In this document: piece after piece, positions 4,216 through 40,820 of the stretch
How the letters are laid out: every line of letters begins with the position of its first letter
Numbering within the stretch: position 1 is the stretch's first letter
IMG/VR virus record: IMGVR_UViG_2917413769_000008
Location: 1-40,820 of that record
Strand: one strand, 5' to 3'
DNA from: a virus
Taxonomy: Duplodnaviria > Heunggongvirae > Uroviricota > Caudoviricetes
DNA: 40,820 nt
Translations under genes and position numbers: made by a program
The notes under the pieces: generated by a model
The model's input: the letters and a program-made list of their open reading frames with translations, nothing else
What the model was told of the DNA's origin: nothing
Database searches by the model: none

Positions 4216-4512
4216 TTATACCTCTGAATCAATATCAACCTGGTGGTGAGCAATGGTTTCAACCATGTACCGGATGTGTTCTGCCATGCGCTCCTGAAAC
4301 TCAACATCGTCATCAAACGCACGGGTAATGGCTTTTTTGCTGGCCCCGTGGCGTTGCAAATGATCGATGCATAGCGATTCAAACAGGTGCTGTGGAAGAC
4401 CTTTTTCCATGTCGTCTGCCAGTTCTGCCTCTTTCTCTTCACGGGCGATCTGCTGGTAGTGACGCGCCCAGCTCTGAGCCTCAAGACGATCCTGAATGTA
4501 ACAAGCGTTCAT
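4216..4512 (-). CDS. gam: Gam, RecBCD inhibitor (short 98-aa form)
   Basis: Matches the C-terminal 98 aa of lambda Gam; an in-frame stop lies 19 codons upstream, so the long isoform is not encoded. Confidence 0.9.
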
Positions 4513-33653: not shown

Positions 33654-36600
33654 ATGGGTAAAGGAAGCAGTAAGGGGCATACCCCGCGCGAAGCGAAGGA
33701 CAACCTGAAATCCACGCAGTTACTGAGTGTGATTGATGCCATCAGCGAAGGGCCGATTGAAGGCCCGGTGGATGGATTAAAAAGCGTGCTGCTGAACAGT
33801 ACGCCGGTGCTGGACAGTGAGGGAAATACCAACATCTCCGGTGTCACGGTGGTGTTCCGGGCAGGTGAGCAGGAGCAGTCACCGCCGGAGGGATTTGAAT
33901 CATCAGGTTCCGAGACGGTACTGGGTACGGAAGTGAAATACGACACGCCGATCACCCGGACCATCACGTCTGCAAACATCGACCGTCTGCGCTTTACCTT
34001 CGGTGTGCAGGCACTGGTGGAAACCACCTCAAAGGGGGACAGGAATCCATCGGAAGTCCGCCTGCTGGTTCAGATACAACGTAACGGTGGCTGGGTGACA
34101 GAAAAAGACATCACCATTAAGGGCAAAACCACCTCGCAGTATCTGGCCTCGGTGGTGGTGGGTAACCTGCCGCCGCGCCCGTTTAATATCCGGATGCGCA
34201 GGATGACGCCGGACAGCACCACAGACCAGCTGCAGAACAAAACGCTCTGGTCGTCATACACCGAAATCATCGATGTGAAACAGTGCTACCCGAACACGGC
34301 ACTGGTCGGCGTGCAGGTGGACTCGGAACAGTTCGGCAGTCAGCAGGTGAGCCGTAATTATCATCTTCGCGGGCGCATTCTGCAGGTGCCGTCGAACTAT
34401 AACCCGCAGACGCGGCAATACAGCGGTATCTGGGACGGAACGTTTAAGCCAGCATACAGCAACAACATGGCCTGGTGTCTGTGGGATATGCTGACCCATC
34501 CGCGCTACGGCATGGGGAAACGTCTTGGTGCGGCGGATGTGGACAAATGGGCGCTGTATGTCATCGGCCAGCATTGCGATCAGTCGGTGCCGGACGGTTT
34601 TGGCGGCACGGAGCCGCGCATCACCTGTAATGCGTACCTGACCACACAGCGTAAGGCGTGGGATGTTCTCAGTGATTTCTGCTCGGCGATGCGCTGTATG
34701 CCGGTATGGAACGGGCAGACGCTGACGTTCGTGCAGGACCGACCGTCGGATAAGGTGTGGACCTATAACCGCAGTAATGTGGTGATGCCGGATGATGGCG
34801 CGCCGTTCCGCTACAGCTTCAGCGCCCTGAAGGACCGCCATAATGCCGTTGAGGTGAACTGGATTGACCCGAATAACGGCTGGGAAACGGCAACAGAGCT
34901 TGTGGAGGACACGCAGGCCATTGCCCGTTACGGTCGTAACGTCACGAAGATGGATGCCTTTGGCTGTACCAGCCGGGGGCAGGCGCACCGCGCCGGGCTG
35001 TGGCTGATTAAAACGGAGCTGCTGGAAACGCAGACCGTGGACTTCAGCGTGGGTGCAGAAGGGCTTCGCCATGTACCGGGCGATGTCATTGAAATCTGTG
35101 ATGATGACTATGCGGGTATCAGCATCGGCGGGCGCGTGCTGGCGGTGAACAGCCAGACGCGGACACTGACGCTCGACCGTGAAATCACGCTGCCATCCTC
35201 CGGCACCACGCTGATAAGCCTGGTTGACGGACAGGGGAATCCGGTCAGCGTGGAGGTCCAGTCCGTCACCGACGGCGTGAAGGTGAAAGTGAGCCGGGTT
35301 CCTGACGGCGTTGCCGAGTACAGCGTGTGGGGGCTGAAGCTGCCGACGCTGCGCCAGCGCCTGTTCCGCTGTGTGAGTATCCGTGAGAACGATGACGGTA
35401 CGTATGCCATCACTGCCGTGCAGCATGTGCCGGAGAAAGAAGCCATCGTGGATAACGGGGCGCACTTTGACGGTGACCAGAGCGGCACGGTGAATGGTGT
35501 CACGCCGCCAGCGGTGCAGCACCTGACCGCAGAAGTCACCGCAGACAGCGGGGAATATCAGGTGCTGGCGCGCTGGGACACGCCGACGGTGGTGAAGGGC
35601 GTGAGCTTCCTGCTTCGCCTGACCGTGGCTGCGGATGATGGCAGTGAACGGCTGGTCAGCACGGCCCGGACGACGGAAACCACATACCGCTTCAGGCAAC
35701 TGGCGCTGGGAAATTACAGGCTGGCAGTCCGGGCGACAAATGCCTGGGGGCAGCAGGGAGACCCGGCGTCGGTATCGTTCCGGATTGCCGCACCGGCAGC
35801 GCCGTCACAGATTGAGCTGACTCCGGGCTATTTTCAGATAACAGCCACGCCGCATCTTGCCGTTTATGACCCGACGGTACAGTTTGAGTTCTGGTTCTCG
35901 GAAAAGCGGATTGCGGATATCAGGCAGGTTGAAACCACAGCCCGCTATCTTGGCACGGCGCTGTACTGGATAGCCGCCAGTATCAATATTAAGCCGGGCC
36001 ATGATTATTATTTTTATATCCGCAGTGTGAACACCGTTGGCAAATCGGCATTTGTGGAGGCTGTCGGTCGGGCGAGCGATGATGCGGAAGGTTACCTGGA
36101 TTTTTTCAAAGGCCAGATAACTGAATCCCATCTCGGCAAGGAGCTGCTGGAAAAAGTCGAGCTGACGGAGGATAACGCCAGCCAACTGGAGGAGTTTTCG
36201 AAAGAGTGGAAAGACGCCAACGATAAATGGAATGCCATGTGGGGCGTCAAAATTGAGCAGACAGAAGACGGTAAGCATTATGTCGCGGGGCTTGGCCTCA
36301 GCATGGAGGATACGGAGGAAGGTAAACTGAGCCAGTTTCTGGTTGCCGCTAACCGTATCGCGTTTATTGACCCGGCAAACGGGAATGAAACGCCGATGTT
36401 TGTGGCGCGGGGCAACCAGATATTCATGAACGAAGTGTTCCTGAAGTATCTGACGGCTCCCACCATTACCAGCGGCGGCAATCCGCCGGTATTTTCCCTG
36501 ACACCGGACGGGCGGTTGACGGCGAAAAATGCCGATATCAGCGGTAACGTGAATGCGAACTCCGGGGCGCTCAACAACGTCACGATAAATGAGAACTGTA

Positions 36601-37067
36601 CGATTAAGGGAATGCTCGAGGCTACTCAGGTCAAAGGTGACTTCGTTAAAGCTGTATCTAAGCCATTCCCGAAAAAAACTGGCTCGTGGGGCAATACGGA
36701 AACACCAGGCGGGACGGTTACAGTCACCATTTACGATGATCATAACTTTGACCGCCAAATCATTATTCCGCCCATTATTTTTAACGGTATGGCGTATGAC
36801 GATCCGGGGAGCGGTAATAACCCGGGAGGTACGCGATACACGGGTTATGGTTTTGAAGTTCGCAAAAACGGCGTATTAATCGCATCCAGAGAAACTAAAG
36901 GGGCCATTCCCGGTAGTTACAGTGCGGTTATTGATATGCCGAGTGGTGGTGGTAGCGTCACTCTGGAGTTTAAGATTTTCCAGAAAGGCAATCAGGGCGC
37001 AGGTAACATCACAGACTGTACGGTGATTGTGACCAAAAAAGCTGCTTCCGGTATCAGTATCCGTTGA
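33654..37067 (+). CDS. J: Central tail fibre / host specificity protein J, with a divergent C-terminal receptor-binding region
   Basis: 1137 aa, lambda gpJ-like up to ...[15 protein letters not shown]; the last ~150 aa differ from lambda and are lower in GC. Confidence 0.95.
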
Positions 37068-37087
37068 AATATTTATAACCCCAATAC

Positions 37088-37116
37088 GGGCGCCAGAAAT
37101 GGCGCCTTTTTTATTT
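37088..37116 (+). terminator. Hairpin terminator between J and stf
   Basis: GGCGCCagaaatGGCGCC followed by TTTTTTATTT. Confidence 0.65.
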
Positions 37117-37127
37117 GTGGAGTGAGT

Positions 37128-39521
37128 ATGGCAGTACAGATTTCAGGTGTGCTGAAAGATGGTGCGGGAAAACCAATACAGAACTGCACTATTCAACTGA
37201 AGGCAAAGCGTAACAGCACCACGGTACTGGTGAACACGGTGGCCTCTGAAAATCCGGATGAAGCCGGGCGTTACAGCATGGACGTTGAGTATGGCCAGTA
37301 CAGCGTCACCCTGCTGGTTGAAGGTTTTCCGCCTTCACATGCCGGGACCATTACCGTCTATGAAGGTTCCAGACCAGGTACGCTGAATGATTTTCTCGGT
37401 GCCATGACGGAAGATGATGTCATGCCGGAGGCATTGCGTCGTTTTGAGGCAATGGTGGAAGAAGCGGCACGCAACGCCGAAGCCGCCTCTCAGAGCGCAG
37501 CGGCGGCAAAGAAATCCGAAACTGCAGCGGCATCGTCCAGGAACGCGGCGAAAACGTCAGAGACGAATGCAGGTAACAGTGCGAAAGCGGCAGCGGCCTC
37601 ACAGACTGCATCGGCAAACTCCGCGACAGCAGCCAAAAAATCAGAAACCAACGCGAAAAACAGTGAGACAGCCGCAAAGACGAGCGAAACCAACGCAAAG
37701 TCCAGCCAGACGGCAGCGAAAACCAGCGAAACGAATGCCAAAGCCAGTGAAGCTGCGGCGAAAAGCAGTCAGGATGCAGCAGCCGAAAGCGAGAGCGCGG
37801 CAGCCGGTTCTGCGACTTCAGCTGCTGGATCAGCAACTGCAGCGGCTAACAGCCAGAAAGCTGCGAAGACGAGTGAAACTAACGCAAAGTCCAGCCAGAC
37901 GGCAGCGAAGACCAGCGAAACGAATGCCAAAGCCAGCGAAACTGCGGCGAAAAGCAGTCAGGATGCAGCAGCCGAAAGCGAGAGTGCTGCAGCTGGTTCT
38001 GCAAGCGCGGCGGCTGCTTCTGCCACTGCATCAGCTAACAGTCAAAAAGCAGCAAAGACGAGCGAAACCAACGCAAAGACAAGCGAGACTGCGGCGGCTA
38101 ACTCGGCGAAAGCATCAGCTGCAAGCCAGACGGCTGCAAAAGCGAGTGAAGACGCAGCCAGAGAGTATGCAAGCCAGGCTGCGGAGCCGTATAAACAAGT
38201 TTTGCAGCCGCTTCCCGATGTGTGGATACCGTTTAACGATTCACTGGAAATGATTACTGGTTTCGCTCCTGGTTATAAAAAAGTAACTATCGGTGATGAT
38301 GTTATTACTTTTCCATCAGAGAAGGTTGTATCTTTCACTCGCTCCACTTCTGCAACGTATATAAACAAATCAGGTTCATTTGCTTTTGCAGAAATTAACG
38401 ATCCGCGCTTTGAAAAGGAAGGTTTATTAATTGAAGGTCAGAGGACAAATACATTTACTAATAGTAACAATCCTTCATTATGGAATTATGACGACAAGAA
38501 TATAGAAATAACCACATCGGTTGATGAATATGGTTTTAAATATGGTTTGTTCGATGTAAAGGAAACATCAACTACTGAAAGGGCGACGATAATATCTACT
38601 GGATACAGTAGGGTTATTGATGTTGCTGCAAATGAATCTGTTACCTTGTCCTGTAGGGTTAAGAAGATAAATGGAGAAGGTATTATAACTTTAAGACCCA
38701 GAATATCTTTCGTTAACGATGACGGCACAAGCAACACGCTGGTAGCTGGTTCCTACATAGATTGCGAAACTGGTGATGTTTTAGGTTTTTCTGGTGGGGA
38801 TGCTGTAAATCATGTCATATACAGAGAAGCTAACGGATGGTTACGCGTCGAATTTACATATAAATCACCAGAAGCAAAAAGCATGTATGGGCGCTTTGAA
38901 ATGGGAGCAGATAAAAGGGCGATCAAAAAAGGCGATCAGATAATGTTTACTACGCCGCAATTTGAAAAAGGATCGTGTGCATCATCATTTATCGTTACAT
39001 CAGATGTGGCAGTTACACGGGCTAGTGACGTGGTAATAATGCCAATAAGACTGAACTGGTCAACGCCTCCGTTAAGCGTTCTTATGGAAGTTAATATCAA
39101 CTGGGACAAAATGCCAAACAGTGAAGGTTCAGCAAGGCTTCTTAACGTGTCAATAACTGGCGCAACAACGGATGTTGCTGATGAAAGTTATATGTATTTT
39201 GGTTTTACCTCTGGAGGCGCGCGCTCAATTATAACTAACGGAAAAGGAACAAAGACCGAGTATAAAGCCTACTGTAACAGGACAACCCGCAGGTTTATTG
39301 CTGGGTTTAAGTTTACAGAGCAGAAAGAATTGCGTGCTGTTATAAACGGTAACTTTGGCGCTGTTGGTGTATCACAACACACAAGACAACGTTATACAGA
39401 AGGGCCAATAAATATAGGCGGTCAATCAATATCAGGTAACAGGCATTTATTTGGACACGTGCGCAATTTACGTATCTGGCATAAGGAACTGACAGATGCA
39501 CAAATGGGAGAAAGAATATAA
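37128..39521 (+). CDS. stf: Side tail fibre protein (Stf-like): lambda-type N-terminal anchor, Ala/Ser/Thr-rich repeats, unrelated AT-rich C-terminal domain
   Basis: MAVQISGVLKDGAGKPIQNCTIQLKAKRNSTT... matches the lambda Stf N-terminus; internal tandem repeats; distal half differs from lambda. Confidence 0.85.
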   Translation: MAVQISGVLKDGAGKPIQNCTIQLKAKRNSTTVLVNTVASENPDEAGRYSMDVEYGQYSVTLLVEGFPPSHAGTITVYEGSRPGTLNDFLGAMTEDDVMPEALRRFEAMVEEAARNAEAASQSAAAAKKSETAAASSRNAAKTSETNAGNSAKAAAASQTASANSATAAKKSETNAKNSETAAKTSETNAKSSQTAAKTSETNAKASEAAAKSSQDAAAESESAAAGSATSAAGSATAAANSQKAAKTSETNAKSSQTAAKTSETNAKASETAAKSSQDAAAESESAAAGSASAAAASATASANSQKAAKTSETNAKTSETAAANSAKASAASQTAAKASEDAAREYASQAAEPYKQVLQPLPDVWIPFNDSLEMITGFAPGYKKVTIGDDVITFPSEKVVSFTRSTSATYINKSGSFAFAEINDPRFEKEGLLIEGQRTNTFTNSNNPSLWNYDDKNIEITTSVDEYGFKYGLFDVKETSTTERATIISTGYSRVIDVAANESVTLSCRVKKINGEGIITLRPRISFVNDDGTSNTLVAGSYIDCETGDVLGFSGGDAVNHVIYREANGWLRVEFTYKSPEAKSMYGRFEMGADKRAIKKGDQIMFTTPQFEKGSCASSFIVTSDVAVTRASDVVIMPIRLNWSTPPLSVLMEVNINWDKMPNSEGSARLLNVSITGATTDVADESYMYFGFTSGGARSIITNGKGTKTEYKAYCNRTTRRFIAGFKFTEQKELRAVINGNFGAVGVSQHTRQRYTEGPINIGGQSISGNRHLFGHVRNLRIWHKELTDAQMGERI
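37677..38110 (+). repeat. Tandem 189-bp (63-aa) repeat, ~2.3 copies, within stf
   Basis: Near-identical copies start at 37677, 37866 and 38055 (AAGACGAG(C/T)GAAAC(C/T)AACGCAAAG...), encoding KTSETNAKSSQTAAKTSETNAKASE.AAKSSQDAAAESESAAAGSA... Confidence 0.85.
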
Positions 39522-39802
39522 TGCGAGACTTAACCCTCAAATTCATAAACAAGGCCGACTTTTCGGCCTTTATGGATAGCATTGGTTATGAAGATGACGA
39601 GGTAATGCAGAACAATGTTCTCATTGATGTGATAGGTAACGTGTACAAAGAAACCGGAGAACTTACTGAAGATGGCGAGCCGGTATGTGTTAAGGAAGAC
39701 GGATATTTTGTAAACGTGCGCATCATTAATGATGCAAAAAAATCGTCAATATTCGATAAATACGCGGTTGTTGTTGAGCATCAACTTCGTGGCTGGATGT
39801 GA
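39521..39802 (+). CDS. Hypothetical protein (93 aa) coupled to stf; possible fibre assembly factor
   Basis: ATG overlaps the stf stop (TAATG); AT-rich like the stf distal half. Confidence 0.5.
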   Translation: MRDLTLKFINKADFSAFMDSIGYEDDEVMQNNVLIDVIGNVYKETGELTEDGEPVCVKEDGYFVNVRIINDAKKSSIFDKYAVVVEHQLRGWM

Positions 39803-39811
39803 GGTAGAGAA

Positions 39812-40516
39812 ATGGCTACATCGACAGTAATTCCAGGAGATATCACCAAGCTAAAGGGGGATGTCAGTAAAGCTAAGGAAGATATTTCATCAATTAGCGG
39901 AAAAGTATCAACGCTTCAGACTGATATGGACAGTGCAAAGCAGGATATCAGTACCAGATACACAAAAACAGAAGTGGATAATAAGCTGAAAAACAAAGTG
40001 GAAGTGAACGATCTGGAAAGCGGTCGTTATGGCGGAGATTTTTATCCACTGACAGGTCGTGAAGCGTTTTATTTATGGAATTTGGCCACGACTACAGCTG
40101 CGGCAAACCTTTATCTTAATCCTGACCCCGCAATTTCGTCTGTGCTGCGGTCAACATCGTCTATCCGCTATAAACATTCAGTAGAGACGATAGATTCAGA
40201 GCACGCCGATCTCATTTTCAAGATGCGCCCTGTGTGGTACAGGTCGCAATGCGAAAATGACAGGCGTGACTGGGGATTCTACGGATTGATTGCCGAGGAA
40301 GTAGGAGAAATTGCCCCTCAGTTTGTACACTGGCGACCAGCTAACGAGAATGATGCTCCTGAAGCTATTTCCAGCAATGGCCTTGTTGCCGAAGGTGTAA
40401 TGTACGAACGTCTGGTTGTTCCACTGATTCACCATATCCAGAAACTGACTGAAAGAGTTGATGAACTTGAGTCAGAATTAAAGTTGTTATCAACTTCTCG
40501 AAGCGATATCGGATAA
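39812..40516 (+). CDS. Protein with N-terminal coiled coil and C-terminal intramolecular-chaperone (peptidase S74-like) domain
   Basis: 234 aa; C-terminal region has the S-x-x-R-x-K ... RPVWY ... GLIAEEV ... PQFV ... YERLVVPLIHHIQKL pattern typical of tail-fibre/endosialidase chaperone domains; N-terminus has heptad repeats. Confidence 0.6.
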   Translation: MATSTVIPGDITKLKGDVSKAKEDISSISGKVSTLQTDMDSAKQDISTRYTKTEVDNKLKNKVEVNDLESGRYGGDFYPLTGREAFYLWNLATTTAAANLYLNPDPAISSVLRSTSSIRYKHSVETIDSEHADLIFKMRPVWYRSQCENDRRDWGFYGLIAEEVGEIAPQFVHWRPANENDAPEAISSNGLVAEGVMYERLVVPLIHHIQKLTERVDELESELKLLSTSRSDIG

Positions 40517-40526
40517 AGGAGGAGTA

Positions 40527-40820
40527 ATGGATATAACACCTTTCCTTCATGCACTTTGTGCTGTGGCTGCGCAGGTACTGGTTGGTCTTTTTACCGGAAA
40601 CTGGGCTTACGGTGCGATAGCCGGTTGTACGTTCTTCATTGCGCGTGAACACACCCAGGCAGAATATCGCTGGATTGAAATGTTCGGGCATGGCAAGCGT
40701 ATGAATATGCCGTGGTGGGGCGGTTTTGATCCACGCGCGTGGGATGTGGCAAGCCTGATGGATTTTGCTGTGCCGGTGGTGGCGTGTCTGCTGGTCTGGC
40801 TGTTGGTTAATCGCGGGTGA
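40527..40820 (+). CDS. Hypothetical membrane protein (97 aa, two predicted TM helices); stop at window end
   Basis: AGGAG RBS; hydrophobic segments ALCAVAAQVLVGLF and FAVPVVACLLVWLLV. Confidence 0.5.
   Translation: MDITPFLHALCAVAAQVLVGLFTGNWAYGAIAGCTFFIAREHTQAEYRWIEMFGHGKRMNMPWWGGFDPRAWDVASLMDFAVPVVACLLVWLLVNRG

Follow-up and report, generated by a model that had tools for sequence, protein, structure and literature searches.

Lateral tail fibres made of two proteins, in which the distal subunit cleaves itself, are a kind already known. In the phages DT57C and DT571/2, LtfB, a protein with a conserved N-terminal part and an S74 domain, attaches through LtfA (Golomidova 2016, PMC4728585; Ayala 2023, PMC10713586). 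In the T5-like phage IrisVonRoten (Bas32), the distal Gp24, with its intramolecular chaperone, is modelled attached to the proximal Gp22, with a galectin-like C-terminus (Humolli et al. 2025, PMC11990801). Here we describe a locus at one end of a 40,820-nucleotide (nt) stretch of caudoviricete DNA (IMG/VR record IMGVR_UViG_2917413769_000008, positions 1 to 40,820; hereafter, the window) that represents the minimal end of this kind. Behind the side tail fibre gene stf stand three open reading frames, orf93, orf234 and orf97, named for their lengths in amino acids (aa), and orf234 probably encodes a minimal distal or branch subunit, docked on Stf, that cuts itself by means of a Peptidase_S74 (S74) domain. 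A preliminary description of the window, made from the sequence alone, had picked out these three frames near the prophage end and offered three options for the 234-aa protein: a trans-acting fibre chaperone, a minimal whisker-like fibre or a remnant of a larger fibre gene. The frames, their coordinates and their position are as it described, and the second option fits best.

The genes for Gp22, Gp23 and Gp24 of IrisVonRoten have the same order and spacing as those of the window. Gp22 matches Stf residues 132-799 at 40% identity and Gp23 matches orf93 at 39%; they are homologues of stf and orf93, and Gp24, which opens with MVTKTVIPTDITKLK and closes with an S74 chaperone, is the positional counterpart of orf234. 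The distal proteins are unlike in scale: Gp24 has 574 aa, 463 of them mature, and two receptor-binding domains, whereas the 115 mature residues of orf234 comprise a coiled coil and a tip of about 50 residues. The anchors also differ, Gp22 sitting on a T5-type collar and the window Stf attaching via the phage_tail_N domain of lambda. DT57C resembles the window in having a two-protein lateral fibre whose LtfB combines a conserved N-terminal attachment region with an autocleaving pfam13884 domain. However, LtfA itself ends in an S74 domain, while the window Stf ends in lectin-like domains, and LtfB is a full-size fibre that binds O-antigen.

The S74 chaperone domain of orf234 is genuine, with profile, motif and fold in agreement, as the preliminary description had supposed from its signature. 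The Pfam family PF13884 (Peptidase_S74) matches residues 116-172 along profile positions 1-57 of 58, with 27.4 bits where the gathering score is 22 (E = 4e-6). The predicted nucleophile Ser116 (40157-40159) and Lys121 (40172-40174), in RST/SSIRYK at the start of the domain, are invariant in an alignment of 35 homologues; their Ser-x4-Lys spacing is typical of the S74 family and common to all alleles of gene 3, the place that orf234 occupies in the cassette described below. SSIRYK aligns with TSGIEYK of DT57C LtfA, and the S74 region of that L-shaped fibre (8hqz_d) is the top solved sequence relative of orf234 (E = 1.6e-6). The AlphaFold2 monomer is confident over roughly residues 122-233 (pLDDT, the score of the predicted local distance difference test, 76-91 at 130-230), and a Foldseek search with it returns first the MyRF ICA (7dc3; E = 3e-5, probability 1.00) and then the phage chaperone domains 3gud and 3gw6. 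Profile, Ser-x4-Lys motif and fold thus agree with the Peptidase_S74 chaperones of endosialidase, T5 pb1 and GA-1 gp12 and with the MyRF ICA; those domains serve large tailspikes and fibres or a eukaryotic transcription factor, whereas in orf234 the domain is half of the protein. Cleavage is predicted at T115/S116 (the slash above), which would yield a 12.5-kDa N-terminal part and a 13.7-kDa chaperone.

The N-terminal ~115 aa had been described as a coiled coil, which holds for only part of them. A clean 3-4 heptad spacing runs over residues ~7-46, and AlphaFold2 predicts helices from 12 to 47 and from 52 to 60; the tip, residues 66-115, is a conserved block without helix. In the 35-sequence alignment, homologues of 221-269 aa differ mainly in the number of coiled-coil repeats. 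No globular receptor-binding domain is recognisable in the mature protein, which has only the ~50-residue tip, a segment that also ends long fibres. A surface glycan may be the ligand of this tip, or the tip may be no more than a cap.

Several measures agree that orf234 is intact, under purifying selection in all its parts, and widespread. Compared with three Escherichia coli prophage or phage alleles and that of PeterMerian, its ratio of nonsynonymous to synonymous substitution rates (dN/dS) is 0.05-0.21 overall and remains below 0.35 when residues 1-65, 66-115 and 116-234 are taken separately (0.12-0.15 for the tip); the gene has no frameshifts and no internal stops. In 719 of the 5,426 complete E. 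coli genomes, coverage of the DNA from 39300 to 40820 reaches 80% or more. Full-length short homologues (221-269 aa) are present in prophages of E. coli, and about 40 genomes of lytic T1-like Drexlerviridae have them at 56-60% identity. Among the 80 orf93 loci in IMG/VR closest to that of the window, about 50 have a short gene-3 allele (227-234 aa), and in about 25 the allele has 346 aa. To call a chaperone on so short a protein atypical, as had been done, was therefore an overstatement: the short allele is the commonest at this position. The window allele is the shortest common version of the distal subunit, and 115 mature residues are near the minimum.

The tip and chaperone are also found at the ends of long fibres. 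An exhaustive search of 1.84 billion representatives, which includes the check for C-terminal fusions that the preliminary description had proposed, finds residues ~45-234, at 56-61% identity, closing the C-terminus of fibres 539-1243 aa long. These include lambda-type Stf proteins with phage_tail_N (P0304, 735 aa; P0305, 958 aa), types with T4 Gp34_trimer and gp37_C domains, and one protein with a P2-type N-terminus. P0304 and P0305 are 58-61% identical to orf234 over ~45-234, have almost the same C-terminal helix, and join orf97 in the same way; the last residues of P0305, ...VDELESELKLLSTSRSDIG, are those of orf234. In these two proteins the module is fused in cis to a whole fibre, whereas orf234 has it as a free-standing unit, with a short coiled coil and an adaptor peptide of its own. 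Because its homologues lie on full-length fibres, the module of tip and chaperone is a true end of a fibre, used in two ways: as part of Stf or separately, on a short stalk. A metagenomic lambdoid contig (L204, 4001-9689) has two phage_tail_N fibre genes in tandem, the first a 958-aa S74-type Stf followed by a truncated orf97 and the second a 590-aa fibre followed by a DUF4376 protein; the junction of the P0305-type Stf with orf97 is almost identical to the window's.

The same fusions could be taken as a sign that orf234 is what survives, in decay, of the 3' end of an ancestral S74-type stf after insertion of a new fibre module: identity to the P0305 end is 58% over the last ~185 residues, the final 30 are nearly identical, and the orf97 junction is shared. 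We regard decay, or the frameshifted fragment that the preliminary description had also allowed for, as highly improbable. The low dN/dS and the unbroken frame speak against it, as do a Shine-Dalgarno-like spacer and start codon of its own, conserved in dozens of loci (the start 9 nt past orf93 in ~50 of the 80 closest). The N-terminal peptide and coiled coil, which look functional, are, moreover, kept at the protein level in lytic phages whose DNA in that part is beyond detection by blastn.

The distal-subunit reading also draws on the wider distribution of the locus. The three genes form a portable cassette of constant order: a proximal fibre with a GTA head-spike-like end (gene 1, here stf), an acidic coupled protein of ~92 aa (gene 2, here orf93) and a distal fibre with its own S74 domain (gene 3, here orf234); orf93 and orf234 are thus its distal two-thirds. 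The cassette is found in the lambdoid phages PhiR49_1, IdasGreatGrand, Tritos and PhiR55_1; in the Drexlerviridae, as in PeterMerian, where it lies between the primase and ssb genes; in the Queuovirinae ESCO3 and JenP2; and in the T5-like phages HMD-P4 and IrisVonRoten, at the L-shaped-fibre locus after the collar protein. The genomic placement of the cassette differs among these four siphovirus lineages, across which only the C-terminal ~540 residues of gene 1 are common; they are 36-43% identical between the window Stf and the gene-1 products of PeterMerian, ESCO3, JenP2, IrisVonRoten and HMD-P4, and the N-terminus is lineage-specific. The start of gene 3 lies 9 or 12 nt past orf93 in every case, and the product opens with M(A/V)T(S/K/V)T(V/I)IPxDI(T/K)xLK, a peptide present in all four lineages. 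Past this peptide the alleles diverge completely, each with its own S74 domain (the 234-aa and 346-aa alleles are 27% identical), and their predicted mature lengths are 105, 108, 115, 221, 223, 226 and 463 aa. DNA comparisons resolve the locus into a mosaic of five units, each exchanged independently: the anchor and shaft of Stf, its distal domain, a conserved joint, the gene-3 body and orf97. Taken together, these comparisons suggest that the cassette has been swapped among lambda-like, T1-like, 9g-like and T5-like phages. Since it sits in four types of virion with only the gene-1 N-terminus changed, the docking partner of gene 3 most simply lies inside the cassette.

This bears on the possibility that orf234 is an independent short whisker mounted elsewhere on the tail, at the tip complex, tube or collar, rather than on Stf. 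Its contact with Stf is only deduced, and short coiled-coil fibres attached to virions are known, yet the sole match of that sort to orf234 is the P22 tail needle gp26, matched weakly and through heptads. Lambdoid, T1-like, 9g-like and T5-like phages all have the adaptor peptide in conserved form, and we assume their tail tips to be too different to offer a common site; in the loci compared gene 3 is always found directly after gene 1 and orf93, never alone. We thus consider a separate whisker distinctly unlikely. For attachment to Stf, the distribution of the cassette and the published model of IrisVonRoten (PMC11990801) are the grounds. Like a branch subunit, orf234 lies downstream of a proximal fibre gene in the same operon and combines a conserved N-terminus with a variable distal part.

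The small protein between the two fibre genes follows gene 1. The orf93 ATG overlaps the stf TAA by one base (TAATG), which bears out the coupling that had been noted at the position of tfa, and gene 2 overlaps the gene-1 stop in 12 of 12 cases. The product is an acidic 10.7-kDa protein (isoelectric point 4.4). It has no Pfam match at E up to 1 and no NCBIfam match at E up to 0.1, and therefore no membership of a Tfa family; of the two profile searches that the preliminary description had suggested, the one for Peptidase_S74 succeeded on orf234 and the one for Tfa found nothing on orf93. Its only match is phrog_1361, a family with no assigned function. A search for solved relatives found none, and a low-confidence model gave generic ferredoxin-like matches, an uninformative fold. 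In its position directly behind a fibre gene and its translational coupling, orf93 resembles lambda Tfa and Mu GpU-type proteins; unlike them, it accompanies a different fibre C-terminal domain.

That domain, and not the S74 gene, is what orf93 tracks, because it is present after the domain in loci that lack gene 3. In about 45 lambdoid loci, the third common arrangement in these phages, Stf and an orf93 homologue (52% identical) are followed directly by orf97, with no S74 gene, and isolated phages such as Lambda_2E9 share this architecture. The rV5-like myovirus JeffSchatz and the Dhillonvirus Ioannina likewise have a fibre ending ...IRIGGQ..RHLFGH..R.W..L.D.Q and an orf93 homologue, with no gene 3 of the window type. 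In Ioannina, ATGGTTACT (M-V-T) stands 11 nt past the stop of the orf93 homologue (L203, ~4259-4285) and resembles a relic of a gene-3 start; the annotated next gene is unrelated and begins 85 nt downstream. Strict co-occurrence and translational coupling suggest an assembly or structural role: orf93 is a dedicated partner of the Stf C-terminal domain and probably an assembly factor, or else a small structural component. We also considered it as an adaptor specific to gene 3, which is disfavoured: loci without gene 3 retain orf93, and alleles of the two genes do not co-vary (in PhiR55_1, orf93 is 35% and gene 3 is 90% identical to the window's). The two genes share a reading frame in every case, with 9 or 12 nt between them (window 39800-39814; L001-L003, L005, L007, L199-L201). 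Programmed readthrough from orf93 into gene 3 was rejected, as the stops are TGA or TAA (TAA in 5 of 9 cassettes) and the spacer is a Shine-Dalgarno linker.

Loci that have an orf93 homologue and a fibre of the Stf family (36-43% identical over the C-terminal ~540 aa) but manage without gene 3 also argue against a further reading, in which orf234, or its released S74 domain, mainly folds or stabilises Stf in trans and is not a functional fibre. The mature protein is indeed tiny and lacks a globular receptor-binding domain, and DT57C LtfA seemed unstable without LtfB (PMC4728585). BASEL-phage homologues bear the annotation 'putative lateral tail fiber chaperone', but this label comes from the Pfam name. 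The solved relatives matched here sit at the C-terminus of their own fibre or factor and are not known to act on any other chain, the same tip and chaperone occur in cis on full-length Stf proteins, the N-terminal peptide is common to long alleles with clear receptor-binding domains, and purifying selection extends to stalk and tip. Help in trans is thus unlikely, though a stronger contender than a whisker placed elsewhere.

We therefore return to orf234 as a distal subunit, for which the following course of assembly is proposed. Stf would dock at the tail tip by its lambda-type N-terminus and present lectin-like beta-sandwich domains at the other end. The orf93 product, translated in step with Stf, would act on or with the Stf C-terminal domain as an assembly factor or accessory subunit, filling the genomic place of Tfa while being unrelated to it. 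The orf234 product would be made as a 26-kDa precursor, in which the S74 chaperone trimerises and templates the folding of the ~50-residue tip and the coiled-coil stalk; the Ser116/Lys121 pair would then cut between T115 and S116, and the chaperone would leave. The mature trimer, of 12.5-kDa chains, would be a very short fibre whose N-terminal peptide docks on Stf and so adds a second small tip, following the proposals for LtfB on LtfA in DT57C and Gp24 on Gp22 in IrisVonRoten.

Some points weigh against this account. Cleavage, trimeric state, docking on Stf and any receptor of orf234 are all inferred; a literature search for virion proteomics of short S74 proteins gave nothing usable. The monomer model is poor at residues 62-121 (pLDDT 33-42), although low values in the tip are the expectation for an intertwined trimer, and the tip probably folds only in that form. 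With no recognisable globular domain to bind a receptor, the ~50-residue tip might be a structural cap only. For orf93 we infer a role from two things, co-occurrence and translational coupling. Finally, the phages in which Stf and orf93 occur without gene 3 would leave any docking site on Stf empty.

Features of the fibre locus (window coordinates)
Feature	Position	Strand	Description or evidence
gpJ	33654-37067		complete, upstream of stf
stf	37122-39521	+	799 aa, proximal side tail fibre
Tandem repeat in stf	37659-38096		189 bp, 2.3 copies, 85% matches
Conserved joint	39444-39876		Stf end, orf93 and gene-3 N-terminus
orf93	39521-39802	+	93 aa
orf234	39812-40516	+	234 aa, start 9 nt past orf93
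N-terminal adaptor peptide, aa 1-24, MATSTVIPGDITKLKGDVSKAKED	39812-39883	+	conserved among gene-3 alleles with otherwise unrelated bodies
Coiled-coil stalk, predicted trimeric, ~aa 7-62	39830-39997	+	heptads, AlphaFold2 helices, indels in homologues
Tip segment, aa 66-115	40007-40156	+	conserved with chaperone; also at long-fibre ends
Peptidase_S74 intramolecular chaperone, aa 116-234 plus stop	40157-40516	+	Pfam, invariant S/K, Foldseek, 8hqz_d alignment
orf97	40527-40820	+	97 aa; last base of the window is the end of the stop codon

The proximal gene, stf, encodes a side tail fibre of the lambda type: its N-terminus is a phage_tail_N anchor (PF08400, E = 3e-67, residues 3-133; Pfam), and it is the gene after gpJ. 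The anchor is followed by an alanine-rich repeat shaft and by distal beta-sandwich domains like those of the RcGTA head-spike fibre. The NCBIfam model GTA_spike_fiber matches residues 436-634, and the distal domain is homologous to the head-spike fibre Rcc01080 of RcGTA (PDB 6tb9, E = 6e-7); the protein closes with IGGQ..RHLFGH.RN.RIW.K.L.D.Q. The tandem repeat, with nested periods of 21 and 42 bp, encodes the 'KTSETNAK' shaft, whose length is probably set by the number of repeat copies. Between gpJ and stf (37067-37122) the window has no lom, a gene present there in PhiR49_1, PhiR55_1 and E. coli R11. The last of these (NZ_CP107155.1; L004, 3826-6222) is the closest complete genome, its DNA being 97% identical to the window end to end; despite this alignment its stf is annotated as broken pieces or pseudogenes across the alanine-rich repeats.

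The last frame, orf97, had been described as a membrane protein with two transmembrane segments. Its sequence is strongly hydrophobic in two segments, residues 3-24 and 72-96, and less so in a third that comes after the first. It matches phrog_1443, with no Pfam match and no PADLOC model at E up to 0.01, and a search for a promoter or terminator of its own gave nothing above chance. We tried it as a defence or lysis protein and set the idea aside, given the lack of PADLOC and Pfam matches and Comamonas neighbours without Pfam hits. The gene is 93-100% identical behind almost all lambdoid cassettes, whether or not these include the S74 gene, is absent from lytic-phage cassettes, and has a dN/dS of 0.09-0.30. 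It is a conserved passenger of temperate cassettes and not a fibre component. The variable cargo begins after it, so that orf97 is the last conserved gene and does not, as had been thought, open the variable region. In a near-identical prophage (L010, 6467-10265), orf97 is followed by an IS3-family transposase pair, an AraC-family regulator and an omptin, a set that resembles the appY-ompT neighbourhood of the DLP12 prophage of E. coli K-12. Beyond the Enterobacteriaceae, the family occurs in a Comamonas prophage directly behind a 2520-aa J-like tail-tip gene (L198, 5001-5303), and a homologue in Aeromonas (L008, 6001-6309) lies in a non-phage setting among genes for pirin, a RIO1 kinase and lipid A acyltransferases. 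From its position one might guess that orf97 takes part in superinfection exclusion at the envelope.

Side fibres help determine which strains a phage reaches, and lambda-type particles are being engineered for delivery to gut E. coli. The cassette is among the commonest fibre modules of E. coli prophages and is shared with four groups of lytic phages, and its comparison shows where parts could be exchanged: at the adaptor peptide (residues 1-24), at the predicted cleavage site between T115 and S116, and at the conserved right arm, which consists of the chaperone end and orf97. The database label 'lateral tail fiber chaperone' for homologues of orf234 is, in our judgement, misleading. More tentatively, and with considerable doubt, we suggest that the orf93 family (phrog_1361) is an undescribed class of fibre partners specific for GTA-head-spike-like ends, and that orf234 is the smallest module for docking a tip as a branch. 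If so, an orf93-family partner, whether chaperone or structural joint, would serve at least six phage groups, myoviruses included, and the adaptor peptide, stalk and S74 chaperone of orf234 would constitute the smallest branch-adding module, useful for the engineering of host range.

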